Shown in pieces: positions 16,079 to 48,823 of a stretch of DNA of 64,000 nt. The stretch spans positions 1-64,000 of the IMG/VR virus record IMGVR_UViG_3300037475_000199. One strand, 5' to 3'. This DNA comes from a virus. A program made the translations under genes and the position numbers. Under the pieces are notes generated by a model that saw nothing but the letters and a program-made list of their open reading frames with translations, was not told the DNA's origin and made no database searches. Positions within the stretch are counted from its first letter, which is position 1. Each line of letters begins with the position of its first letter.

Positions 16079-16082
16079 AAAT

Positions 16083-16177
16083 ATAAAGTTGCGTGAGTGG
16101 ATTAAACGATCACCCGAGTCAGGGTGAGAAAGAACTTATAAAAAGTCTTTCCAAAAGTTCGAATCTTTTACTTTATA
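16083..16177 (+). tRNA. aberrant type II tRNA-like gene (18-nt anticodon arm; possible 8-nt loop; pseudogene?)
   Basis: Acceptor ATAAAGT pairs with ACTTTAT. Three-bp D-stem CGT/ACG. Anticodon region TCACCCGAGTCAGGGTGA. Long variable hairpin GAAAGA...TCTTTC. T-arm AAAAG-TTCGAAT-CTTTT. No CCA. Confidence 0.35.
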
Positions 16178-16182
16178 TTTAT

Positions 16183-25097: not shown

Positions 25098-26006
25098 ATG
25101 AATACGGCAGAACTAATTAAACAATTGCGTGAATTTACCCAAGCTGGGATGAAGGATTGTATTGATGCTTTAAAAGAATCTGGAAATGATTTAGAAAAAG
25201 CCATTGATATTATTAAAGTCAAAGGAAAAAACATTGTTTCTGGTCGTTCTGGTAGAATAGCATCAGAAGGTTTAGTGGTAATAAGATCATTACCATATAC
25301 AAATGCTATTGCTATGTTGGAAGTAAATTGTCAAACTGATTTCGTAGCTCGCAGCGAACAATTTCAATCATTAGCTAATATAGCTATGCAAGGCTTAGTT
25401 GTTGCAGTAACTAACAATCAAACATGGGATGGTAAAGACAATATAACTACTGCTGCTATTGAAAATGTAACTTCATCTACCAAAGAAAATATTGTTGTTC
25501 GTCGATGGTGGGTAGAAGAAGTAATTGATCCAACAGCCAAAGTATTTCATTATCTTCATAATGGAGATCAATTGGGAGTTATTCTTACTTTGCAAGCTCC
25601 TTCTGTTGAGGCGGCAAGCGACCCAAGATTTATTGCTCTTGGAAATGATTTAGCTATGCAAGTAGCCGCAATGAGTCCAGTAGCAATTTCAGCCGAGCAT
25701 GTATTGCCCGAGGTTAAAGAAAGGCAGCAAGCTATCTTTGAAACTCAATTAAAAGAAGCCAATAAACCAGAAACTGCCTGGGCAAAGATTTTAACTGGCA
25801 AGTTTAATAAGTGGTATTCTGAATCCTGTTTATTAGAACAGGAATCTGTGTTACATCCAAAATCTTCTGTTAAAGATGTTATTGCTTTAGTCTCTAAGCA
25901 GATTGGTGGAGATATTACTGTAGCTAATATGATTAGATGTCAAGTTGGTGAAGGTATAGTAAAAGAAAAAATTGGTTTAGCTGATGAAGTTGCAAAGTTA
26001 ATGTAA
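25098..26006 (+). CDS. tsf: translation elongation factor Ts (EF-Ts)
   Basis: N-terminal UBA-like LIKQLREFTQAGMKDCIDAL. Internal LEVNCQTDFVA is identical to the E. coli EF-Ts core motif. C-terminal RCQVGEGIVKEK compares with RFEVGEGIEK. Confidence 0.75.
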   Translation: MNTAELIKQLREFTQAGMKDCIDALKESGNDLEKAIDIIKVKGKNIVSGRSGRIASEGLVVIRSLPYTNAIAMLEVNCQTDFVARSEQFQSLANIAMQGLVVAVTNNQTWDGKDNITTAAIENVTSSTKENIVVRRWWVEEVIDPTAKVFHYLHNGDQLGVILTLQAPSVEAASDPRFIALGNDLAMQVAAMSPVAISAEHVLPEVKERQQAIFETQLKEANKPETAWAKILTGKFNKWYSESCLLEQESVLHPKSSVKDVIALVSKQIGGDITVANMIRCQVGEGIVKEKIGLADEVAKLM

Positions 26007-31982: not shown

Positions 31983-32321
31983 ATGGAAGATATTTCAAAA
32001 TTAGAAAAAATAGAAATCTTATTTAAAGAATATGATTTTATGAAGTTGAAGCGCCGCACTTATTATGGTGGTGAATATAATAATGAAGCATTACACTTTT
32101 GTTTATTATTGAATCAATATGATACGGTAGATTCAATACAAGTTAAAGCTTGGGAAACTTTTTATAAATATTTTTGTACTGATGAGAGATTTTACAATCT
32201 TTATAAAAAAAAGATTGGTCTTGTTTTTAAAGATTCAAAAGAAGAAGCTATTAAAAAAATAGGTACAGTCGATAGCTTTTTAGAGTTTTCAAAAAAAGTT
32301 AAGGAAATATTAGATGGATAA
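31983..32321 (+). CDS. hypothetical protein
   Basis: ORF only. Confidence 0.4.
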   Translation: MEDISKLEKIEILFKEYDFMKLKRRTYYGGEYNNEALHFCLLLNQYDTVDSIQVKAWETFYKYFCTDERFYNLYKKKIGLVFKDSKEEAIKKIGTVDSFLEFSKKVKEILDG

Positions 32322-33411
32322 TTCAAAAGTTGCAGTAGGGTATGTGCCAGAAAAAATTTCCTATGTTTATTCTGCAGAACAAGAAGTTAATGTTGGGTGT
32401 GAATGGGATATTAATTGGGGATCCAATGTTAACGGTATAAAAGAAAAAGTTACTCCTGCGTTTCCTGTAGATTCTGTAGATGATAAAGGAATGTCTACAG
32501 CCAAAGCTTGGGCAAAAAATAACTATAGAAGAGCTCATTATCAAGATAAAACCGCGCCAACACCGCCTGAACCAATAATAGAAACCGTAAACAATGATTC
32601 TATTACGAATATTAAATTACTTTCAATAGAGCAAAGAAGTGGCGGCGGTCGTGCATATAAAGCATTAATTGATAAATTTTACGTAGATGTAAGAGAAGAT
32701 GTTGTCCTAGATACTATGCTTAAGTCTGGAGTTAGTCCAGGTGGAATTCTTAATGGTGAATTTGTGTGGGCAAAAGTTGGAGCCCAAATGAAATTAATCC
32801 GTAAAGGATCAGAAGTACATAGATTAATTATAGAGTTTTCATCTAAAAAAGATTTGAAACCAATAAAGAAGAAGACACTAGAGGTTGGAGGAGTTTATCA
32901 GACTCGTAAAAAAGAACCTGCCATTTTTATAGGGTATGTTGATTCCGTAAAATATTCTTGCCCAAGTAATATTACAAATACTTATTATTCTATGGCTCGA
33001 CTAAAAGATGATGAATATTTAAAATTTGAACAAGGACCAATTAAAAATTGCATGCTGTTCTATACATTATATAAGTTTCAAGAGTTAGAAAAAAACCTTA
33101 AAGAGATGGATGACTTTAATAATTATTATAGGTTTAATTTTAAAAAATCTCATAATTTTATTGAAAAAATAGATCAATTAGATTTAGGTAGTGATATTAT
33201 TGAGAGATTAAATGCAGCAACTTTAAAAAGTATAAAAACTAAATTTTTAGAATATGTTGGCAAGGTTCCTCCACCATCGGGGTACTCAAAAATTGATGCA
33301 TATGGTTTAGCATTAAAAATACAAGATTGTTCTGCTTATTTAAATATGTCTAAAACTGGTGAGCCTGCGAAAGAATTGTTTGATATTAAAAAATATCTTT
33401 TATTTACTTAA
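32314..33411 (+). CDS. hypothetical protein
   Basis: 365-aa ORF with no recognisable motif. Confidence 0.4.
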   Translation: MDNSKVAVGYVPEKISYVYSAEQEVNVGCEWDINWGSNVNGIKEKVTPAFPVDSVDDKGMSTAKAWAKNNYRRAHYQDKTAPTPPEPIIETVNNDSITNIKLLSIEQRSGGGRAYKALIDKFYVDVREDVVLDTMLKSGVSPGGILNGEFVWAKVGAQMKLIRKGSEVHRLIIEFSSKKDLKPIKKKTLEVGGVYQTRKKEPAIFIGYVDSVKYSCPSNITNTYYSMARLKDDEYLKFEQGPIKNCMLFYTLYKFQELEKNLKEMDDFNNYYRFNFKKSHNFIEKIDQLDLGSDIIERLNAATLKSIKTKFLEYVGKVPPPSGYSKIDAYGLALKIQDCSAYLNMSKTGEPAKELFDIKKYLLFT

Positions 33412-33425
33412 TTTATCTGTCGCTC

Positions 33426-33453
33426 TTGACAGTAATTTTAAAAAATGTATACT
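33426..33453 (+). promoter_or_regulatory. sigma70-like promoter (TTGACA-16-TATACT)
   Basis: Consensus hexamers upstream of natV/nadV. Confidence 0.45.
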
Positions 33454-33467
33454 AAGTGTAGAGGGTC

Positions 33468-33494
33468 TACTACTACTACTACTACTACTACTAC
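33468..33494 (+). repeat. (TAC)9 trinucleotide microsatellite in the natV 5' leader
   Basis: Nine perfect TAC units between the promoter -10 and the natV Shine-Dalgarno. Confidence 0.9.
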
Positions 33495-33576
33495 TTAAAC
33501 ATATGTTTGAATCTGTTATATAGGTTCATGTTCCCAGAGAGGGAACTTTATAATTTAGACAACATGGAGAATGTTA

Positions 33577-34590
33577 ATGAAAAATTTTGAATTTTGTGTA
33601 TTTATTGGTCAATTTAGTCCATTCCATAATGGTCAATCTGCTATTCTTCAAGAAGCTTTAAATCAAGCAGAAACAGTTATTGTTGTCCTTGGTTCAGCTA
33701 AAAAGGCAAGAAACATTGAAGTTTCATGGAATGTCGAGCAACGCATTGAGATGATTAAGTCAACTCTTTCTGTCGAAGATCAGGTTCGTATTAAATTTGT
33801 TCCATTACGAGATCACATTTATAGTGATACAATTTGGGTAACTGAATTATTAGAAAAAATGACTCCCATTTTAAATGGATCAAAGAATGTTTCTTTGGTT
33901 TGTAGAGAAAAGTATAATAAAGAATATCTTAAATTGTTCCCGCAATGGGAATTAATCCCAGTTAAAACTACTGAGCCGCATCATGATGCGGAAGATATTA
34001 GACATCGTTATTTTACATATGATACATCTTATTCTCGTTTCGTTCACGAAAATGTAGCTAAGATGATGAAAGAATTTCAAGACACTCCAATCTTTCAAAC
34101 CTTAAAAAGTGACTTTGATTATGTCAAGAAATATAAGGCAGCATGGGAAGGCGCCCCATTTAAACCAATCTTTGTTACAGTAGATGCTGTAATTGTTAAA
34201 TCTGGACACGTACTTTTAGTGAAGCGTAAGGGTAATCCTGGTAAAGGGCAAATGGCATTACCAGGTGGATTTTTAGATCAAGAAGAGCTAATTGAAGATG
34301 CTGTTTTAAGAGAAGTAAAAGAAGAGACTGCTATTAAAATGTCTAAAGATGAACTTCGAGCCTGCATTACATATTCTGAAGTTTTTGATGCCAAAAATCG
34401 TTCATTGCGTGGGAGAACAATTACTCACGCATTTTTAATTGATTTAGGTTCCGGAACCCTACCAAAAGTAAAAGGTTCTGATGATGCAGAAAAAGCTTTT
34501 TGGCTTCCTTTGAACGAAGTCAAGGACCGTGAAGATGAATTTTTTGAAGATCATTTTCACATTATTAGTTCATTCACAAACAAACTATAA
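33577..34590 (+). CDS. natV: bifunctional NMN adenylyltransferase / Nudix hydrolase (NatV/NadM-Nudix type)
   Basis: N-terminal GQFSPFHNGQ is the nucleotidyltransferase (H/T)xGH-like motif. Nudix box GGFLDQEELIEDAVLREVKEETA. ATG 33577 after GGAGA. Confidence 0.6.
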   Translation: MKNFEFCVFIGQFSPFHNGQSAILQEALNQAETVIVVLGSAKKARNIEVSWNVEQRIEMIKSTLSVEDQVRIKFVPLRDHIYSDTIWVTELLEKMTPILNGSKNVSLVCREKYNKEYLKLFPQWELIPVKTTEPHHDAEDIRHRYFTYDTSYSRFVHENVAKMMKEFQDTPIFQTLKSDFDYVKKYKAAWEGAPFKPIFVTVDAVIVKSGHVLLVKRKGNPGKGQMALPGGFLDQEELIEDAVLREVKEETAIKMSKDELRACITYSEVFDAKNRSLRGRTITHAFLIDLGSGTLPKVKGSDDAEKAFWLPLNEVKDREDEFFEDHFHIISSFTNKL

Positions 34591-34633
34591 TCTTTTCAGA
34601 GAGAAAAGAAGTTAACAATACGGAGAGTACGAA

Positions 34634-36085
34634 ATGAGAACAGTAATCGCAAGAAAAGAAGACTTAGAACATAGCAACGTTACCGACACTGATAGTTACA
34701 AGTTTAGCCATTTTATTTTATATAAGAAGGCTGGCGTAACTAGAATGTTTAGTTATCTAGAGTCTCGTGGTGGTGAATTTGATGTTTCTACTATTTCAGC
34801 CCTACAAGTAGCATTACATAGATACATTGCAAAAGGATTTAAGAGAAAGGACATTGATCGTGCAGAAAAGCTTGCAGCTAAACATGGCGTCCCTTTCAAT
34901 CGTCCAGGATTTGAAGCCATGTATAACAAATATAATGGTAAGTTTCCAGTTAGAATTAGATCTATTCCTGAAGGTATGATAGTTCCAGTTTCAACTGCAC
35001 TATTAACTATTGAGTGTTGTGACGAAGATTGTTTTTGGATTGTCAATTGGCTAGAGACTTTATTATCTAGAATTTGGTATCCTTCTACTATTGCAATTGC
35101 AAGTCGTTCAGTCAAGAAACTTTGGAAGCACTTCTTAGATATGACTTCCGATAATACTGATCTCGAAATTGGATTTAAGCATCATGATTTCGGATCTAGA
35201 GGAGTAACCTGCTTTGAGCAAGCCGAATTGGGCGGTATGGCTCACTTGTTGAGCTTCTTTGGTTCTGATACTTTAGCGGGTGTTGAGCTTGCCAATTACT
35301 ACTATGATTGTGATATGTCAGGATTCTCGATTTGTGCTACTGAACATTCTACCATGACTATTTTTGGTCGTGCTGGTGAACGTCAAGCACTTATTGATTG
35401 GATTACTGAAACATTGGTTAATGTTCCAAATATTCCTGGTGTACCTAAAGTGTCTGCTTGTGTTGGTGACAGCTACAATATCTATGATTTTACTACACTA
35501 GTAAGTCGTGATGATGAGGTAAGAAACTTAATTGCTAATTCAGGGGGCACTTTAGTAGTAAGACCAGATAGCGGTAAACCATCTGAAGTTCTTCCTAAAA
35601 TATTGGAATTGTTTGAGCAAAACTTGCCATCAGGATCTATTACTGTTAATAGTAAGGGATACAAAGTTCTACCTTCATATTTGAGACTTATTTGGGGTGA
35701 TGGCATTAACCGTCGTTCAATGAAAGATATTCTTCAATTAGTAGTTGATCTTGGTTGGAGTGCATCTAATATTGCGTTAGGTTCTGGTGGCGGTTTATTG
35801 CAAGATGTTAATCGTGATACACAGAAGTTTGCTTTTAAGTGTTCGTTTGCTGAAGCAAAAGGCGTCTCAATTGATGTTCTTAAAGATCCAATCACTGATC
35901 CTGGAAAGAAATCAAAAGCGGGTCGCCTTGACACTATTAAGCTTCCAGATGGTGAAATTAAAACAGTCTCCATTGGAGTAAATGAAGAATGTCATCCTCT
36001 TAGCATTATGAATACTGTTTTTGAAATGGGAGATATTACTTATCACACTACGTTCGCTGAATGTAGAGACAGAATGGCGCTATGA
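34634..36085 (+). CDS. nadV: nicotinamide phosphoribosyltransferase (NAMPT/NadV)
   Basis: DTDSYKFSHF near the N-terminus matches the NAMPT DSYK motif. About 480 aa, the size of NadV. Confidence 0.65.
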   Translation: MRTVIARKEDLEHSNVTDTDSYKFSHFILYKKAGVTRMFSYLESRGGEFDVSTISALQVALHRYIAKGFKRKDIDRAEKLAAKHGVPFNRPGFEAMYNKYNGKFPVRIRSIPEGMIVPVSTALLTIECCDEDCFWIVNWLETLLSRIWYPSTIAIASRSVKKLWKHFLDMTSDNTDLEIGFKHHDFGSRGVTCFEQAELGGMAHLLSFFGSDTLAGVELANYYYDCDMSGFSICATEHSTMTIFGRAGERQALIDWITETLVNVPNIPGVPKVSACVGDSYNIYDFTTLVSRDDEVRNLIANSGGTLVVRPDSGKPSEVLPKILELFEQNLPSGSITVNSKGYKVLPSYLRLIWGDGINRRSMKDILQLVVDLGWSASNIALGSGGGLLQDVNRDTQKFAFKCSFAEAKGVSIDVLKDPITDPGKKSKAGRLDTIKLPDGEIKTVSIGVNEECHPLSIMNTVFEMGDITYHTTFAECRDRMAL

Positions 36086-36360
36086 AAGTATTAAAGGCAC
36101 CCGAATTAGATAGTTGGTCAACAGAAGTTACATGTAAATGTACGGCTCTTCTTGAAATTGTTATTAGTGACATTTCTTCTCAATGTCATGAAGATAATGA
36201 TAGGTTTGCTGGAAGTATATATTATACATTTAATGTAAAGTGTCCAATCTGTAAAGACAGCATACCTATTCTTGAAAATAAAATGACTCCTGCTGTTAAG
36301 GCTCATTTAGAACATACAGCTAAAAGACCATATATAAGCTCTGGTCCCTGGGATAGATGA
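36082..36360 (+). CDS. small Zn-ribbon protein
   Basis: CKC...C and CPICKD Cys pairs. ATGA overlap. Confidence 0.35.
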   Translation: MKVLKAPELDSWSTEVTCKCTALLEIVISDISSQCHEDNDRFAGSIYYTFNVKCPICKDSIPILENKMTPAVKAHLEHTAKRPYISSGPWDR

Positions 36361-36977
36361 TTAATGCTGAAACAATAATTAAGACGTTTGGTTTAAATGC
36401 ATCAAACGTCTTAACCATTTTCCCTTACGGAAGTCAAGTTTACAAAACAGCTAATGAAAAATCAGACCATGATTTTATTGTTGTTTTTAAAGACGGAACA
36501 GTATCAGATGAATTTGCTATTACTAGAGACAATTTATCTATTCATTCCTATAATGATTCATCATTTCAAGATTTGTTAACCAGGCACAAAATAGCTGCAC
36601 TGGAATGTTATTTTTTACCCTCGGAATATTTATTATTAGAGAATAAAAAATACAAATTTTCCCTCCATATAGACATGTTAAGATCTACAATTAGCGAAAA
36701 ATCATCGCATTCTTTTGTGAAAGCTAAGAAAAAATTTGAAGTGGAAAAAGATCGCGATATTTATATTGCTAAAAAATCTTTATTTCATTCATTAAGAATT
36801 ATTGACTTTGGAACTCAAATAGCTGTTCATAAAAGAATTATTGATTATACATCCAGCAATCATTTATGGGAAGATATTTACACTGATCCTAATGAAGGTT
36901 GGGTTTCATATAAAGAAAAGTATCAGCCAATATTTAATTCTATGATGACTGAATTTAGAAAGGTAGCTCCTAAATAA
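36357..36977 (+). CDS. minimal Pol-beta-superfamily nucleotidyltransferase
   Basis: FPYGSQVYKTANEKSDHDFIVV matches the G[SG]-x9-13-DxD NTase signature. Confidence 0.45.
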   Translation: MINAETIIKTFGLNASNVLTIFPYGSQVYKTANEKSDHDFIVVFKDGTVSDEFAITRDNLSIHSYNDSSFQDLLTRHKIAALECYFLPSEYLLLENKKYKFSLHIDMLRSTISEKSSHSFVKAKKKFEVEKDRDIYIAKKSLFHSLRIIDFGTQIAVHKRIIDYTSSNHLWEDIYTDPNEGWVSYKEKYQPIFNSMMTEFRKVAPK

Positions 36978-37420
36978 TGGGCAACATAGCTTTTATTACA
37001 ACTAAAAAGCATATTAGGTCTTATAATATGTTTTCCTTGCTTCAAAAAATTAATGAATCAAAATTTGATGGAAAGCTAAATATTGTGGACGATATAAGTG
37101 CTTGGAGCATAAACTATCAAAATAATTGGGATAGTATAAATTACTATATTCGTAGTCCTAGAAAAATAGGTGCCAAACACCCTCATAATAATTGGATGCC
37201 TTATGTTTTTTCTGTTTTTCAAAATGAATTAGGCTATATGACGGATGGAAAATTAAGTGATGAATGCTGTAATGAATTTTGGTTACCAGAAAAAGATAAA
37301 TGGGAATCATATAAAGAATATAGATATGAGATGAATAGTTGGATGGAAGACGAAAATTCTCGAACATTAAGAACCATAGAAGATTTGCGGGATGTTCCTC
37401 CAGATATGGCAGGATATTAA
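36977..37420 (+). CDS. hypothetical protein
   Basis: ORF only. Confidence 0.4.
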   Translation: MGNIAFITTKKHIRSYNMFSLLQKINESKFDGKLNIVDDISAWSINYQNNWDSINYYIRSPRKIGAKHPHNNWMPYVFSVFQNELGYMTDGKLSDECCNEFWLPEKDKWESYKEYRYEMNSWMEDENSRTLRTIEDLRDVPPDMAGY

Positions 37421-37687
37421 ATGCGTGGTTGGACTGGCTTAGTTGGAAAAATAGACGGAGCTCATTTTTATTATGTAAATGGACTTTTGCATAGAGAAGA
37501 TGGTCCAGCCATAATAGAAGATAATGGAGATAAGTTTTGGATGCAAAATCATATGCTTCACAGATTAGATGGTCCTGCATCAGAATTTGCTGATGGTGGT
37601 AAAGAATGGTTTATTTGGGATGAAAAGATTCCGTGCTCATCTCAAGAAGAATTTGAAAGAGTTCTTAAGTTAAGAACATTTTGGTAA
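37421..37687 (+). CDS. MORN-repeat protein with KLRTFW tail
   Basis: YVNGLLHREDGPA and MQNHMLHRLDGPA repeats. C-terminus CSSQEEFERVLKLRTFW. Confidence 0.55.
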   Translation: MRGWTGLVGKIDGAHFYYVNGLLHREDGPAIIEDNGDKFWMQNHMLHRLDGPASEFADGGKEWFIWDEKIPCSSQEEFERVLKLRTFW

Positions 37688-37690
37688 CAA

Positions 37691-37960
37691 ATGAAAAACT
37701 CTTATAAAATGAAAGATGGAATTAATATTAGAGATGATGGCGCTATTTGTTATGTTAAAAATAGAAAATATCACAGAGAAGATGGACCGGCTATAATTTT
37801 AGAAGGACAATATAGATGTTGGCTTCAAAATGATGTATATTACCGTCTTGATGGACCAGCCGTGGAAGATGATAATGGTTATAAAGAATGGCATGTTGAT
37901 GATAAAGTATTCTTTACAGAAGAAGAGTATAGAATGTGGAAAATTAAAACTTTTAGTTAA
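37691..37960 (+). CDS. MORN-repeat protein with KIKTFS tail
   Basis: NRKYHREDGPA and VYYRLDGPA repeats. Confidence 0.5.
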   Translation: MKNSYKMKDGINIRDDGAICYVKNRKYHREDGPAIILEGQYRCWLQNDVYYRLDGPAVEDDNGYKEWHVDDKVFFTEEEYRMWKIKTFS

Positions 37961-37970
37961 GGATTAAAAT

Positions 37971-38885
37971 ATGTGTAATGTACTCGTAGGCACAGCTGTT
38001 GGTGATGCTTTAGGTGTTCCATTTGAAACTTTTTTGATAAATAATCCTCTTCTTTTAGATTGGGATGGAACAACTTATCTTGGAAGTAAATATCATGGTT
38101 TAGAACCAGGTCAATACTCAGATGACACTCAACTATCTATTTTGGTTGCTAAATCATTAATATTAAATTCTGGATTTAATCCAGACGATTTAGCTGCAAG
38201 ATATCAAGATTGGTTTTTTTCTGGCGTTGCACGAGGTTATGGTAAAACAACAAAGTTAGCTATGGAAGCTCTTAAAAGTGGTAAACATTGGAATGAATCT
38301 GGGATTGCCGGCTCTTTAGGTAATGGAACGGCTATGCGTGCAGCTCCATTTGGAGTTTACTTTAGAAATGATTTTAAACAATTAATTGCTGCAGTAAAAA
38401 TAGATTCAGCAATTACGCATGTTTCAGAAGATGCTGAAGCTGGAGCTATTGCTATTGCATTAACAGCAGCTTATGCCGTTAATCGTAACACTGAAAATCT
38501 TTTAGACAAAATTTGTGAAAATTTACCAGACTGTAAAGTTAAAAAAACAATTTCTAGTTTGGATGCATTAATTAACGCAGATAATATTACTCCTCCACAA
38601 GCTTTAAGAGTATTGGGGACAAAGGCTAATGTACAAGAAACTGTGCCCGCAGCATTATATTGTTTTCTGAAATTTGATAATTATCACGATGCTGTGCTTG
38701 CTGCAATTAAAGCTGGTGGTGATACCGACACTACTGCCGCAATAGTTGGAGCTTTATTTGGAGCCAGAGATGGAATCAAAAAGATAGATAGAAAATTTTA
38801 TTCGGTAGAAGATTTTGATAAATTAATAGAGTTAGATAGCCAGCTTTATAACAGATCTAATTCATTATTTTTTCCTAGAAACTAA
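37971..38885 (+). CDS. ADP-ribosylglycohydrolase (ARH/DraG family)
   Basis: N-terminal VLVGTAVGDALGVPFE matches the ARH GdAlG...E motif. C-terminal AGGDTDTTAAIVGALFGA is the metal-binding D-T-D region. Confidence 0.6.
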   Translation: MCNVLVGTAVGDALGVPFETFLINNPLLLDWDGTTYLGSKYHGLEPGQYSDDTQLSILVAKSLILNSGFNPDDLAARYQDWFFSGVARGYGKTTKLAMEALKSGKHWNESGIAGSLGNGTAMRAAPFGVYFRNDFKQLIAAVKIDSAITHVSEDAEAGAIAIALTAAYAVNRNTENLLDKICENLPDCKVKKTISSLDALINADNITPPQALRVLGTKANVQETVPAALYCFLKFDNYHDAVLAAIKAGGDTDTTAAIVGALFGARDGIKKIDRKFYSVEDFDKLIELDSQLYNRSNSLFFPRN

Positions 38886-40444: not shown

Positions 40445-40473
40445 CATTTTTAAATGATTAGGATAGTGAAATG
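40445..40473 (+). promoter_or_regulatory. sigma70-like promoter (TTGACT-17-TAGGAT) within an ATGTG...CACAT inverted repeat
   Basis: Hexamers at the correct spacing. AAATGTGTGGTCTTGACTGCACATTT forms an inverted repeat over the -35. Confidence 0.35.
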
Positions 40474-40929
40474 GAAAACCACGAAACACCAGAAGCTATT
40501 AAAGCAAGGGCTGAACAAGCGGACCCTCTTGTTATGTATTTAATAGTAAGAGAAGAGTTAGAAATGAGTATTGGTAAAGCTTGTGCTCAATGCGCTCATG
40601 CTAGCCAAATGATCACTTTAAAATATTTGCCATTATATATTAAATATTTTGAAAAAGATATTGAGAATTCTGGTTGGATTGATAAAAGTTCATATGAAAG
40701 TTACTTAAGTTTTGTTGAATGGCTTGCCGGTTCTTTTCGTAAAGTGGTTCTTAAATCAGATGAAAAAGAATGGGTTAAAATCAAAAACGAGTTACCCAAC
40801 AACTCAATAATCGTTGTTGATGCGGGTTTAACCGAGCTTCAACCAAATACAGAAACAGTAATTGGTCTTTGGCCAATGAAAAGAAGTGAACGACCCAAAA
40901 TAATCAAAAAATTGCAAGTTTTAACATGA
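40471..40929 (+). CDS. peptidyl-tRNA hydrolase, PTH2 family
   Basis: PLVMYLIVREELEMSIGKACAQCAHAS aligns with the PTH2 core ([25 protein letters not shown]). Confidence 0.6.
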   Translation: MENHETPEAIKARAEQADPLVMYLIVREELEMSIGKACAQCAHASQMITLKYLPLYIKYFEKDIENSGWIDKSSYESYLSFVEWLAGSFRKVVLKSDEKEWVKIKNELPNNSIIVVDAGLTELQPNTETVIGLWPMKRSERPKIIKKLQVLT

Positions 40930-44087: not shown

Positions 44088-44278
44088 ATAAAAAATATTT
44101 TGTAGTTTATTATGTTTGGGACACTTTTCGAGGGTGGAATGGTCCAATGAATATTCTTATAGATAAACATCCCTTAAAGTGGCTTAAAGAAGATAAGATT
44201 GCGTTATCAAAAGAACATAGTTGGGATGACATTTCTATTTCTTGGTGGCAATTATTAGAGGAAGATTATGACAAATAA
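44084..44278 (+). CDS. small hypothetical protein
   Basis: ATGA overlap. Confidence 0.3.
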   Translation: MNKKYFVVYYVWDTFRGWNGPMNILIDKHPLKWLKEDKIALSKEHSWDDISISWWQLLEEDYDK

Positions 44279-45029
44279 AGATAGTTTAGGCGACAGAATA
44301 AAGGCTTATGAGGATTGTTATAGAGTACAATTACCTCAAAGAATGCCAGTTATTCTTAGGGTTGATGGCAAATCATTTCATAATTATACCAAAGGTTGTA
44401 AAAGACCTGTTGACGAGAACCTTGTCAATTGTATGAATGAGACAGCAAAATATCTTTGTGAAAATATTCAGGGAGCAAAATTAGGATATGTACAATCAGA
44501 TGAAATATCTATATTATTAACTAACTATGAAACAATAAATACGCAATCATGGTTCGATAATAATTTGGTTAAAATGGTTAGCATATCTTCGGCTTTAGCT
44601 TCAGCTAAATTTACCTCTATTTCTGACACTATTTTTGGTAAGCCTAAAATGGCAGTTTTTGACAGTCGAGCTTTTGTAGTTCCAGTTAATGATGTTTGTA
44701 ATTATTTTTTATGGAGACAACAAGATTGTACCAGAAATTCAGTTCAAATGTTAGCTAGAAGTCTTTATTCTCATAAAGAATGTAATAATAAGAACAATTC
44801 TCAATTGCAAGAGATGTGCTTTCAAAAAGGTATTAATTGGAATGATTGCCCTACATCTCAAAAACGTGGTAGATGTATAATTAAACAATACAAGGTTAAA
44901 ACTGGAACTAATATTAAAACTGGCGAACAATTTTCTGCAGAACGTTCCAGTTGGGAAGTTGATAACGAAATTCCAATTTTCTCATTAGATAGAAATTATA
45001 TTAATAAACTAATAATTCTTAAAGACTAA
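44268..45029 (+). CDS. tRNA(His) guanylyltransferase Thg1-like protein (TLP)
   Basis: VILRVDGKSFHNYT compares with the Thg1 rIDGkkFH motif. KRPVDEN compares with the PxDE motif. YVQSDEISILL compares with GESDEYSFI. Confidence 0.6.
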   Translation: MTNKDSLGDRIKAYEDCYRVQLPQRMPVILRVDGKSFHNYTKGCKRPVDENLVNCMNETAKYLCENIQGAKLGYVQSDEISILLTNYETINTQSWFDNNLVKMVSISSALASAKFTSISDTIFGKPKMAVFDSRAFVVPVNDVCNYFLWRQQDCTRNSVQMLARSLYSHKECNNKNNSQLQEMCFQKGINWNDCPTSQKRGRCIIKQYKVKTGTNIKTGEQFSAERSSWEVDNEIPIFSLDRNYINKLIILKD

Positions 45030-46854: not shown

Positions 46855-46883
46855 TTGACAGGTGGGCTTGACACCCTTATATT
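46855..46883 (+). promoter_or_regulatory. sigma70-like promoter (TTGACA-17-TATATT)
   Basis: TTGACA at 46855-46860 and TATATT at 46878-46883. A second TTGACA lies at 46868. Upstream of ligA. Confidence 0.45.
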
Positions 46884-46954
46884 GTCCGAGCCCACAGCGG
46901 GTTTATTTTATAAATTCAACATTTAACTGCATTGCACTTACCCAAGTAATTCAC

Positions 46955-48823
46955 ATGAACAGAATACAAGAATTATCAGACAAGATTATTAAGGCTCGTA
47001 ATGACTACTACAATCAACAGCCATCTGTTTCAGATAAGGTTTTTGATGCTTGGGTAGCTGAGCTATCATCTTTAGATCCAAATAATATAGCTGTAACGGC
47101 AATTGGTGCCCCAGTATTGCCCTCTGAATGGAAGAAGGCTAAGCATCAAATACCTATGGGCTCTTTAGATAAAGTTAATTTGCCAGCCGAACTAACTGCT
47201 TGGGTAGATACGCTACCCACAAATGGAAAACTTTTAATTACAGAGAAGCTAGATGGTCTTTCGATTGAAGTAATTTATGAAAATGGTAAGTTAACACAAG
47301 GCATTACTCGTGGTGATGGTGAAATTGGCGAAGATATTACTATTAATGTTGTTAAAATGAGTGGCGTCCCATCTCAATTAAAAGATAACTTTACTGGCTC
47401 TCTTAGAGGAGAGATTATTATGAAGAAAAGTGTTCATCAAAAGCACTTTTCAGATAAAGCAAATCCTCGAAATGCTGCTTCTGGAGTATCTAAACGTTTA
47501 GATGGTGTAGGTGTAGAGCACTTAAATATCTTCTTTTATCAAGCTTTGGGTGATATTGAGTTTCAGGCAGAGCAAGAACAATTTGCTTGGTTAGTTCATC
47601 AAGGTCTAACAACTCCTCTTTGGTGTTTAGCAAAGACCGCTGATGAGGTTAATAAGTTTTGGCGAGACTATCAAGACACTAAACGAGATAAATTAGACTA
47701 TGATATTGATGGTTTAGTTATTCGTCTTGATAATTTAGATGATCAAGCAGCTCTTGGAGACAAAGATCTTAGACCAAAGGGAGCTAAAGCCTTTAAATTT
47801 GATAATGAGACCAGAGAGTCAGTCATTAGAGATATTACTTGGCAAGTAGGCAACAGTGGTCGTATTACTCCTGTAGCCACAGTAGATCCAGTAGTACTGG
47901 TTGGGGCAACTGTAACTCGTGCCAGCATCTATAACCTAACTTATATTGAAGACCTAGGTCTAGATGTAGGTGCTACAGTTTTAGTAGCAAGAGCTAATGA
48001 TGTCATTCCCAGGATTGAAGAGTTGGTTAAAGGCACAGGAACTGTAGCTAAGCCACCAGCACATTGTCCAGAATGCAATGCTGTTACTATAATGAATGGA
48101 GAGAATCTACAATGTACTAATGTAGATACTTGTCCTGCACAAGTAATTGGTCGTATTAAGAACTGGGTAGCTGAGCTTAACTTATTAGAATGGGGCGACA
48201 CTCTTATTGAGAAGTTAGTTAAGTCTGGCAAGGTCTCTAATGTTGCTGACCTTTATACTTTAACTGTAGATGATTTAGCTAATTTAGATAGAATGGGTGA
48301 CAAGTCAGCAAAGAAATGTTATGATATTCTTTGGTCAGATGTAAATATTCCTTTGGACACTTTTTTAGGAGCTTTAAGTATGACAATGATTGGTGCTAGT
48401 ACCATTAAGTTAATTATGAATGCCGGCTGTGATACATTAGAAAAGTTTGGTCAGTTAAAGGCAGAACACTTTGAACAAGTCGCAGGCGTTGGTCCAACTA
48501 AAGCTAAGTTTTTGGCAGACGGATTAATGGCTAATCAAAAACTTATTTTGTCTATTTTGGATAACGGAGTTAAGATTAAAGATAAAGTTGATGGACCTTT
48601 GAGCAATAAAAGCGTTTGTTTTACTGGAACAATGACAAATAAGCGCCCAGTATTAGAGAAAATGGTTCAGGATGCAGGTGGCGATGTTAAAAGTTCTGTT
48701 GGCAAGGGTTTAACCTATTTGGTTATTGCAGATACTAATAGTACAAGCTCTAAAGCTGTTAGTGCTCGTAAGTATGGAACCACTTTAATTTCAGAAGATG
48801 AATTTTTAGATTTGGTGAAATAA
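46955..48823 (+). CDS. ligA: NAD+-dependent DNA ligase (LigA)
   Basis: Adenylation motif TEKLDGLSIEV (KxDG). Followed by OB, Zn-finger (CPECN...C), HhH and C-terminal BRCT-like regions. Start set at MNRIQEL. Confidence 0.7.
   Translation: MNRIQELSDKIIKARNDYYNQQPSVSDKVFDAWVAELSSLDPNNIAVTAIGAPVLPSEWKKAKHQIPMGSLDKVNLPAELTAWVDTLPTNGKLLITEKLDGLSIEVIYENGKLTQGITRGDGEIGEDITINVVKMSGVPSQLKDNFTGSLRGEIIMKKSVHQKHFSDKANPRNAASGVSKRLDGVGVEHLNIFFYQALGDIEFQAEQEQFAWLVHQGLTTPLWCLAKTADEVNKFWRDYQDTKRDKLDYDIDGLVIRLDNLDDQAALGDKDLRPKGAKAFKFDNETRESVIRDITWQVGNSGRITPVATVDPVVLVGATVTRASIYNLTYIEDLGLDVGATVLVARANDVIPRIEELVKGTGTVAKPPAHCPECNAVTIMNGENLQCTNVDTCPAQVIGRIKNWVAELNLLEWGDTLIEKLVKSGKVSNVADLYTLTVDDLANLDRMGDKSAKKCYDILWSDVNIPLDTFLGALSMTMIGASTIKLIMNAGCDTLEKFGQLKAEHFEQVAGVGPTKAKFLADGLMANQKLILSILDNGVKIKDKVDGPLSNKSVCFTGTMTNKRPVLEKMVQDAGGDVKSSVGKGLTYLVIADTNSTSSKAVSARKYGTTLISEDEFLDLVK

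Follow-up and report, generated by a model that had tools for sequence, protein, structure and literature searches.

We analysed a 64,000-nucleotide stretch of viral DNA (IMG/VR virus record IMGVR_UViG_3300037475_000199, positions 1 to 64,000; the window from here on). Judged from its sequence, the region from 33426 to 36085 appears to open an early-type transcription unit headed by a NARP2-type pair of genes for the salvage of nicotinamide adenine dinucleotide (NAD+), natV followed by nadV. The most interesting content of this region is a leader of two hairpins, HP1 and HP2, which stands before each of the two genes and was not found in the libraries that we searched. The explanation that we favour, with a probability of about 0.6, is that HP1 and HP2 form a translational operator before natV and nadV, that a long TAC repeat in the natV leader is inconsequential, and that the ATP site of NatV is remodelled yet functional. 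The original prediction for this region had not described HP1, HP2 or their second copy before nadV.

The layout is a promoter, a 5' untranslated region (UTR) of ~115 nt counted from the predicted start of transcription, natV, a 43-nt spacer and nadV. The features are as follows:

33426-33453, plus strand: sigma-70-type promoter (-35 TTGACA at 33426-33431, 16-nt A/T-rich spacer, -10 TATACT at 33448-33453)
33467-33495, plus strand: (CTA)9.67 tract, which holds nine perfect TAC units (33468-33494), at ~+8 to +36 of the predicted mRNA
33495-33510, plus strand: P1, palindrome/hairpin UUAAAC-AUAU-GUUUGA, which RNAalifold did not predict
33508-33528, plus strand: P2, hairpin of 7 pairs with a 7-nt loop, in the RNAalifold consensus of the close clade only
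33530-33546, plus strand: HP1 of the natV leader, GUUCCC-AGAGA-GGGAAC (covariance-model match 33529-33579, 42.7 bits)
33561-33575, plus strand: HP2 of the natV leader, AACAU-GGAGA-AUGUU, which ends 1 nt short of ATG 33577 and whose loop holds the Shine-Dalgarno (SD) sequence GGAG (33566-33569)
33577-34590, plus strand: natV, a NadM-type nicotinamide mononucleotide (NMN) adenylyltransferase (NMNAT) domain fused to a Nudix ADP-ribose pyrophosphatase domain
34591-34609, plus strand: HP1 of the nadV leader, UCUUUUC-AGAGA-GAAAAGA (covariance-model match 34591-34636, 47.9 bits, E 1.1e-11)
34619-34629, plus strand: HP2 of the nadV leader, UAC-GGAGA-GUA, which ends 4 nt short of ATG 34634 and whose loop holds the SD
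34634-36085, plus strand: nadV, nicotinamide phosphoribosyltransferase (NAMPT)

Two groups of relatives were compared with the window: leader-bearing relatives reached through NatV homologues of 96-75% identity and, for breadth, 80 IMG/VR loci that encode NatV relatives of 38-55% identity. Across these sequences HP1 has a stem of 5-9 bp that is free in sequence and closes on a 5-nt ANNGA loop (C-AGAGA-G in the window), an A/C-rich linker of 8-25 nt follows, and HP2 is a hairpin of 3-7 bp whose loop carries the SD GGAG and whose 3' end is 0-9 nt from the AUG. Elsewhere the HP2 stem takes forms such as ACAC/GUGU, AUAC/GUAU, UCAC/GUGA, CAAAA-GGAGU-UUUUG and AAUAGA-GGAGU-UCUAUU, and HP1 shows compensatory change as well, for example GTTCTC/GAGGAC in locus L011. 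In the window, the HP1 of the nadV leader begins at the base directly after the natV stop codon.

The element is tightly bound to these two genes. Scanning the 64 kb for a stem closing on C-AGNGA-G returned exactly 2 hairpins, one ahead of each gene, against 0.07 in shuffles, and a regex scan found the same pairing of one copy per gene in L001, L011 and L013. With stems of at least 4 bp and an AGNRA loop there are 81 hairpins on the gene strand and 13 on the opposite strand; with stems of at least 5 bp and an AGNGA loop, 44 of 86 hairpins lie before natV and 31 before nadV. When the closing pair is left free, the count is 103 on the gene strand against 6 on the opposite strand in 656 kb.

Both hairpins also behave as paired RNA. 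In a 34-sequence alignment (A3), 89% of the cells are paired compared with 65% after shuffling, and the covariation score of 0.70 (0.21 in shuffles) was reached by none of 500 shuffles. Sliding the partners by 1-3 columns makes the pairing collapse. HP2 covaries although it was not used to choose sequences, and its pair 36-46 is CG in 19 sequences, UA in 12, GC in 2 and UG in 1, with none unpaired. The covariance model R1, whose training set includes both leaders of the window, was run on the window with filters off and gave the two leaders at 47.9 and 42.7 bits and then nothing better than E 0.49. On 87 other loci (451 kb, both strands) it gave 77 matches with E<0.05, all of them on the gene strand and at gene starts, and many of these are in loci outside the training set.

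We considered whether the element has further regulon members, and rejected this because the copies before other genes are HNH-like endonuclease insertions between the leader and natV, plus one unknown gene. L017 (about 1170-1950) and L022 (about 1117-1950) have HNH-like homing endonuclease genes of 242 and 254 aa in this position, so that the leader now fronts the endonuclease gene; the assignment was made by eye (CHYCG...NGIDR...CCWxCN) and there was no Pfam match. One locus, L048, has a separate copy of the leader element before an unknown gene of 213 aa.

The bases that are conserved fall into discrete classes. Searching the 80 loci de novo for the best hairpin ahead of natV gave C-AGAGA-G in 17, G-AUAGA-C in 10 and C-AGUGA-G in 9, followed by C-AGGGA-G and C-AAAGA-G in 3 each and a few others, with A-N-N-G-A as the common pattern. 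Within a genome the HP1 loop class (C-AGNGA-G, G-AUAGA-C or G-GGAGU-C) is the same before both genes, and between genomes it differs; the third base of the loop is free to vary, also inside a single genome. The G-AUAGA-C class stands before both genes in Rhodobacter phage RcXuper, Synechococcus phage B23 and Xanthomonas phage LucasX, and GAP32 has a variant element. Bacterial genome records carry it too: Sulfurovum metagenome-assembled genomes have GGG-AUAGA-CCC and then CACUAA-GGAG-UUUAGUG, the element is also present in Thiorhodococcus and 2.4-Mb Asticcacaulis scaffold records, and several alphaproteobacterial records have a GGAGU loop. Some of these bacterial records may be prophages or contaminating phage contigs. 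The two-hairpin leader thus appears to be specific to natV and nadV, widespread in phages and present in some bacterial genome records.

Several features indicate the level at which the element acts. Since the stems covary and G.U pairs occur on the plus strand only, it acts as RNA rather than as a DNA operator, and it is not a promoter, as the nadV copy is internal to a polycistronic message. The 3' arm of HP2 fills the spacer to the start codon and must melt for initiation, so anything that stabilises HP2 would repress translation. Conservation at the level of single bases is limited to two similar purine-rich terminal loops, and each genome keeps to one loop class, which resembles recognition by a dimeric or tandem RNA-binding factor. 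Based on these features, we propose that HP1 and HP2 together would act as a translational operator that co-regulates natV and nadV. The HP1 and HP2 loops would be recognised by a factor acting in trans, most likely a protein co-evolving with the cassette, and its binding would stabilise HP2 and occlude the spacer and the start codon, so that NatV and NadV would be produced in a coordinated way and only on demand. NatV and NadV are themselves candidates for this binding role, as no other protein accompanies the element in every case. A reason for such control can be found in the cost of the pathway: NARP2 is reported to carry a cost in phosphoribosyl pyrophosphate (PRPP), and the KVP40 operon to be toxic in E. 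coli (bioRxiv 10.1101/2024.02.11.579819).

A more specific idea, which we hold tentatively and at less than even odds, is that HP1 and HP2 are an undescribed class of regulatory RNA that gates the translation of NatV and NadV by NAD+ state, through either autoregulation or ligand sensing. If true, phages could turn on the reconstitution of NAD+ in response to a defence system that drains it.

Could the RNA itself be the sensor? A small riboswitch that binds NAD+, NMN, ADP-ribose, nicotinamide or PRPP and directly opens or closes the ribosome-binding site would explain why the element is tied exclusively to two NAD+ salvage genes across phages and bacteria and why the SD lies within it, and its pair of similar modules in tandem is reminiscent of the nadA NAD+ riboswitch with its tandem domains (PMC7297122). 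However, only about three loop positions and the SD are conserved, the element lacks an internal loop, junction or pseudoknot from which a pocket could be built, and there was no match to the NAD+ riboswitch or other Rfam families. Discrete classes of loop and closing pair in each genome also fit a co-evolving macromolecular partner better than a universal metabolite, and we consider a riboswitch improbable.

It is also conceivable that no dedicated regulator exists and that the leader is passive mRNA architecture, a stabilising or insulating hairpin followed by a hairpin that presents the SD, inherited with a mobile natV-nadV cassette. The cassette does move among very different phages with the element alongside it, insertions of HNH homing endonuclease genes upstream of natV have left the leader intact, and short hairpins of the size of HP1 and HP2 are weak barriers. 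Passive stems, however, have no need of the ANNGA loop and closing pair that are conserved across NatV identities of 38-100%, and the sequence of the leader block is conserved far above the synonymous rate. We regard the passive explanation as unlikely, although better placed than the riboswitch, and return to the translational operator as the preferred reading of the leader.

The conservation of the leader block is most easily seen among the close relatives. The P1-P2-HP1 block (33496-33548) has 1 mismatch in 53 nt against positions 33-85 of L009, compared with a difference of 29% at the four-fold sites of natV (P about 2e-7). RNAalifold, run unguided on 5 close relatives, recovered P2, HP1 and HP2; in P2, pair 28-42 is AU in 3 sequences and GC in 2, and pair 29-41 is UG or CG. 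No special stability of the whole leader was detected (z = -0.08). We observed that the conservation of the P1-P2-HP1 block exceeds the needs of the predicted hairpins. A six-codon open reading frame (ORF) lies in the block (AUG 33503, MFESVI), reads MFEPVI in L102 and is missing from L010 and L011. P1 also holds the half-sites of a NadR box (TAAACA-TA-TGTTTG, 33497-33510), in reversed order and with 2-bp spacing, which is probably a coincidence. A simple scan flagged HP1 (33530-33546) as terminator-like, and we considered it as an intrinsic terminator or attenuator. In the window HP1 is followed by UUUAUAAUUU, but the relatives have CUUCACAA, CAUUGUUA and CAGUUACA; since the U-tract is not kept, HP1 is not a terminator.

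The promoter upstream of this leader matches 11 of the 12 consensus bases (TTGACA-16-TATACT) and is the best promoter-like site within 32300-37000, so the near-consensus promoter of the original prediction holds. In the window as a whole, TTGACA-N15-18-TATANT occurs at 4 sites compared with 0.57 expected, and TTGACA with an A/T-rich spacer is kept upstream of natV in L010, L011, L013, L014 and L102. Transcription is predicted to start near 33459-33461.

Between the -10 and the SD there are nine perfect TAC units, as had been claimed; Tandem Repeats Finder reports a period of 3, 9.7 copies and 100% matches, and it is the sole such microsatellite in the 64 kb. The sequences on either side of the tract are GTGTAGAGGGT ... 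TTAAACATATG. The equivalent tracts are:

window: (CTA)9.67, 29 nt
L009: CTACTACTACT, 11 nt, 3.67 copies
L102 and L103: CTACTACTA, 9 nt, 3 copies
L014: CTACTACTA
L010 and L011: CTACTA, 6 nt, 2 copies

None of the six relatives checked has a long tract. The seed lies 4-15 nt past the -10 in the relatives, at the extreme 5' end of the predicted mRNA, and in L010, L011 and L014 the CUACUA seed is the 5' arm of a small hairpin equivalent to P1. Given the 29% difference at four-fold sites, the window and L009 are separate lineages and not population variants. We infer that the long tract is a recent expansion private to the lineage of the window, grown by replication slippage from a conserved CTACTA seed.

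In the original prediction, slipped-strand changes in this repeat were proposed to tune expression. Such a contingency-type tuner, in which changes in (TAC)n copy number adjust the expression of natV and nadV and the tract is kept for that reason, agrees with a copy number that is not invariant but runs through 2, 3, 3.67 and 9.67 among relatives; on this count the proposal survived. It would also agree with the way in which the Logan contigs of SRR12917118 break inside the tract: L008 ends at 33486, after 20 nt of repeat, and L006 and L007 start at 33467, the first base of the 29-nt repeat. The Logan assembly uses 31-mers, a size at which a 29-nt tract is by itself unambiguous, and the breaks hint at coexisting alleles of TAC6 and TAC10 or longer, which would give this pattern; sequencing stutter is the alternative. 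Pattern scans with the flanks or with the P1-P2 block found no further repeat alleles in IMG/VR or the JGI metagenomes.

The geometry does not favour a tuner. The tract lies neither between the -35 and the -10 nor in a reading frame; it follows the -10, precedes the SD (33566), has a 3-nt unit and is crossed by no conserved ORF. The sole ORF counted as crossing it (ATG 33445, MYTKCRGS-T9) begins upstream of the -10 and is missing in relatives. A change in copy number would therefore leave both promoter spacing and reading frame intact, and a tuning role is unsupported. Long tracts are found in 0 of 6 relatives, all of the conserved leader elements are downstream of the tract, and the folding energy of the leader is unremarkable, as given above. 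The segment from the -10 to the seed already varies between 4 and 15 nt among relatives, so length there seems unconstrained. We give the tuner slightly less credence even than the riboswitch. The tract most likely has little or no regulatory effect and mainly marks a slippage-prone, length-tolerant spot at the 5' end of the mRNA. Two coding explanations were also rejected. For a leader peptide with attenuation by Thr codons (ATG 33445, nine ACT codons, a stop and a hairpin), the ATG is upstream of the -10 and missing in relatives and there is no conserved U-tract. A Leu-codon ORF (33359-33523) overlaps the end of the upstream gene, and its CTA run has only 2-3.7 copies in relatives.

The original assignment of the two genes to NAMPT and NMNAT-Nudix is confirmed by profile searches, with the correction that the order given there (NadV-NatV) is reversed: natV comes first. 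The ORF at 33571/33577-34590 matches CTP_transf_like at 2.6e-9 (residues 10-79 only) and NUDIX (PF00293) at 5.9e-20, and the ORF at 34634-36085 matches NAMPT_N (PF18127) at 3.2e-15 and NAPRTase (PF04095) at 5.2e-36. The likely start of natV is ATG 33577, seven nt past the GGAG at 33566-33569, and the Logan gene calls start natV there as well. NadV aligns over its full length with solved chains of the NAMPT family at 2.9e-106 to about 1e-92; the best match is a Xanthomonas chain (7yqo, 2.9e-106), and human NAMPT scores about 6e-95. The stretches DTDSYK, HHDFGSRG, RPDSG, GDGIN and GSGGGLLQ..NRDT are aligned and conserved with respect to the solved chains, and we take them to be the NAMPT active site. 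NatV aligns end to end with the Synechocystis NadM-Nudix protein (2qjo, 3.9e-82) and with that of Francisella (2qjt, 3.7e-60). Its Nudix box (GX5EX7REUXEEXGU) is intact, GGFLDQEELIEDAVLREVKEETAI, and REVKEET with the flanking invariant Nudix residues is conserved in 28 of 28 aligned sequences.

With NAMPT and a NadM-type NMNAT-Nudix protein side by side, the domain architecture bears out the assignment to the KVP40-type pathway. NARP2 was defined as Nampt plus Nmnat by Osterman et al. (bioRxiv 10.1101/2024.02.11.579819). The pathway makes NAD+ from nicotinamide, PRPP and ATP and protects phages against defences that deplete NAD+, and the lack of Adps is what separates it from NARP1. Here a Nampt homologue with the N-terminal domain and the PRTase barrel is adjacent, in the same phage, to an Nmnat homologue, and a scan of 25 ORFs in the 25-49 kb interval showed no Adps (PRPS-like) partner. 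By architecture, natV-nadV would be classed as a NARP2-type cassette, an already known kind, although NatV does not have the canonical ATP-site motifs.

The original prediction noted HNGQ in NatV where HxGH is expected. The substitution is real (GQFSPFHNGQ), but seeing it as a single change is too narrow: both ATP-site motifs have been remodelled, clade-wide and under purifying selection. Compared with 2qjo, GRFQPFHLGH becomes GQFSPFHNGQ and FSSTAIR becomes HDAEDIR, with Gln replacing both the Arg and the second His and Glu replacing the Thr, so that HNGQ and DAEDIR stand in place of the canonical (H/T)xGH and SxTxxR. In the closest NatV homologues the motif is HNGQ, HIGQ or HLGQ and the Arg is replaced by Q, K or S; more distant sisters have SLDD, LSLH, LLGH or ALAQ; and homologues at about 55% identity and below again show the canonical GRFQPFHx(A/G)H and xATxIR. 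Among ~115 NatV homologues, ~95 are canonical and 9 end the motif in Gln. We also observed that P0009, P0011, P0012, P0016 and P0018 have a more degenerate first motif (SLDD, LSLH, ALAQ) and retain the Nudix domain. The HxGH signature appears to have been lost or changed more than once among NatV proteins.

One consequence could be that the NMNAT domain is dead throughout this clade, in which case NadV would make NMN, the Nudix domain would clear ADP-ribose and a host enzyme or another phage enzyme would finish the pathway. Three positions in two signature motifs are altered together (GRFQPFHxGH to GQFSPFHNGQ and xATxIR to DAEDIR), the sister proteins diverge further (SLDD, LSLH, ALAQ), and the Pfam match is limited to the first part of the domain, as given above. 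A dead domain would not be expected to be as constrained as its neighbour, however, and by the method of Nei and Gojobori the ratio of nonsynonymous to synonymous rates (dN/dS) is 0.04-0.17 in the NMNAT half (codons 1-170) and 0.05-0.16 in the Nudix half. The last position of the motif is recurrently Gln and not a random residue, the Gln is retained across natV pairs with dS >1, and neither the F-P-F core nor the second-motif Arg has been lost. Because the constraint on the NMNAT domain equals that on the Nudix domain, we believe that the ATP site is a selected variant and not decay. Loss of activity is somewhat unlikely, if the strongest of the alternatives weighed here, and the NMNAT domain is probably functional, and probably still an adenylyltransferase with altered kinetics. 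The HxGH-type signature is usually held to be essential in HIGH-type nucleotidyltransferases, so the HxGQ clade is a natural experiment on it.

Several points weigh against the explanation that we favour. The promoter and the 5' end of the mRNA are predictions from sequence, and the binding partner of HP1 and HP2 is hypothetical. The HP1 alignment was chosen for stems of at least 5 bp and the evidence from its inner pairs is partly circular, which does not apply to HP2 or to the strand and position bias. The pathway can do without the element, which is absent or too altered to be recognised before nadV of KVP40 and in the Acidovorax loci. Hairpins with the SD in the loop could be a general device for mRNA stability or ribosome standby. 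The contig breaks in the TAC tract hint at length heterogeneity, which is expected of a functional hypermutable tract too. The equivalents of the replaced Arg, His and Thr touch the ATP phosphates in this superfamily, and NatV may make no NAD+.

The genes that follow nadV are on the same strand without gaps, the first of them overlapping the nadV stop, so 36085 is not the end of the transcription unit. This first gene is a 92-aa Cys-rich ORF (CKC...CPIC, 36082-36360) that overlaps the stop codon as ATGA and could encode a small nucleic-acid-binding protein; an 85-aa counterpart follows nadV in L010 and one other contig, with a faint match to Zn_ribbon_6. Downstream there are a Pol-beta-type nucleotidyltransferase (206 aa, 36357-36977) and an ADP-ribosylglycohydrolase (37971-38885). 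Both are also downstream of nadV in L013 and L014, indicating that the NAD/ADP-ribose module has more than two genes. Two paralogous small ORFs lie side by side at 37421-37687 (88 aa) and 37691-37960 (89 aa) and have repeated H/YREDGPA...RLDGPA motifs. An NAD-dependent DNA ligase of the LigA type (adenylation domain, OB fold, HhH and BRCT) is encoded at 46862-48823; such a phage enzyme implies a direct, replication-linked need for NAD+, a second use of it.

More widely, the proteins around the NAD pair include EF-Ts, orotidine monophosphate decarboxylase, a histidine phosphatase, an HNH endonuclease and an RNA ligase, and further neighbours, besides the ADP-ribosylglycohydrolase, are a UvrD helicase, PTH2, Thg1 and an HD protein. 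The G+C content of the window is 30.7%, and ARAGORN finds 17 tRNA genes spanning 1462-27697, including one call with a 4-base anticodon (16082-16178). The translation toolkit is unusually rich, since in addition to the 17 tRNAs the window has these translation-related genes:

25098-26006: EF-Ts
40471-40929: PTH2 peptidyl-tRNA hydrolase
44268-45029: Thg1-like tRNA-His guanylyltransferase

The source is a large, AT-rich, tRNA-rich phage with many translation-related genes. Exact copies of 3 window proteins are found in a 70,885-nt JGI contig and in the Logan contigs of SRR12917118. There is no close relative among cultured phages, as megablast gave two 44-nt matches only and the best identity of NadV to cultured-phage proteins is 45%.

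Among regulatory systems that are already known, the leader is closest in form to the translational operators that place hairpins by the SD, such as those of E. coli thrS, MS2 coat protein, T4 gp43 and RegA. Like them, it places one or two hairpins, with loops that are conserved and stems that are free to covary, at the ribosome-binding site or a short distance ahead of it. The ANNGA consensus and the distribution over two genes and across phyla match none of them, and the binding protein here is putative. CsrA/RsmA was considered as a partner, and HP2 would fit (C-GGAGA-G), but the HP1 loops are mostly AGAGA, AGUGA and AUAGA, without GGA. An analogy with boxB was considered as well and did not fit the leader.

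The Rfam 15 gathering scan of the window detected tRNAs only, and E-value scans of both leaders and eight related loci gave nothing relevant. We also found no description of this leader in literature on nadV, natV or nadM with a riboswitch, stem-loop or RNA motif. Two NAD+ riboswitches are known, the nadA motif (class I) and the pnuC motif (class II) (PMC6859854, PMC7297122, PMC7749635). They share with the leader a cis-acting RNA before genes of NAD+ metabolism and, in class I, two similar tandem stem-loops. In contrast to them, the leader has no ACANCCCC-type bulge or pseudoknot and its conserved bases are in terminal loops only, and the associated genes are nadM/natV and nadV rather than nadA or pnuC.

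Bacterial NadM-Nudix proteins (Synechocystis slr0787, 2qjo; Francisella, 2qjt) are similar to NatV in that the Nudix box and the residues of the ADP-ribose-binding region are conserved. The Synechocystis operon is under DNA-level control by NrtR, whose site is a 21-bp sequence with a GT-N7-AC core; the NadR site is TGTTTA-N6-TAAACA, and both are DNA palindromes of conserved sequence (PMC2330246). We rejected an NrtR or NadR operator because the HP1 stems are free in sequence and have G.U pairs, and no such operator is evident at the leaders of the window. The TAC tract, in turn, resembles the simple-sequence contingency loci of bacteria in being a perfect short tandem repeat near a promoter with a copy number that varies between relatives, but it differs from them in lying in the 5' UTR after the -10, with a 3-nt non-coding unit and no on/off or spacing mechanism.

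The closest system overall is the NARP2 of KVP40, with the same two enzyme families in the same domain architecture, encoded by a phage. The differences are that NadV is only about 40% identical, that the genes here are adjacent, natV then nadV, that NatV has HNGQ and DAEDIR, and that nadV of KVP40 lacks the HP1/HP2 leader. NARP2 has been described as an always-on, metabolically costly counter-defence, and a conserved RNA element before both genes suggests instead that it is regulated. The cultured phages that carry the element (RcXuper, B23 and LucasX) make this regulation directly testable.

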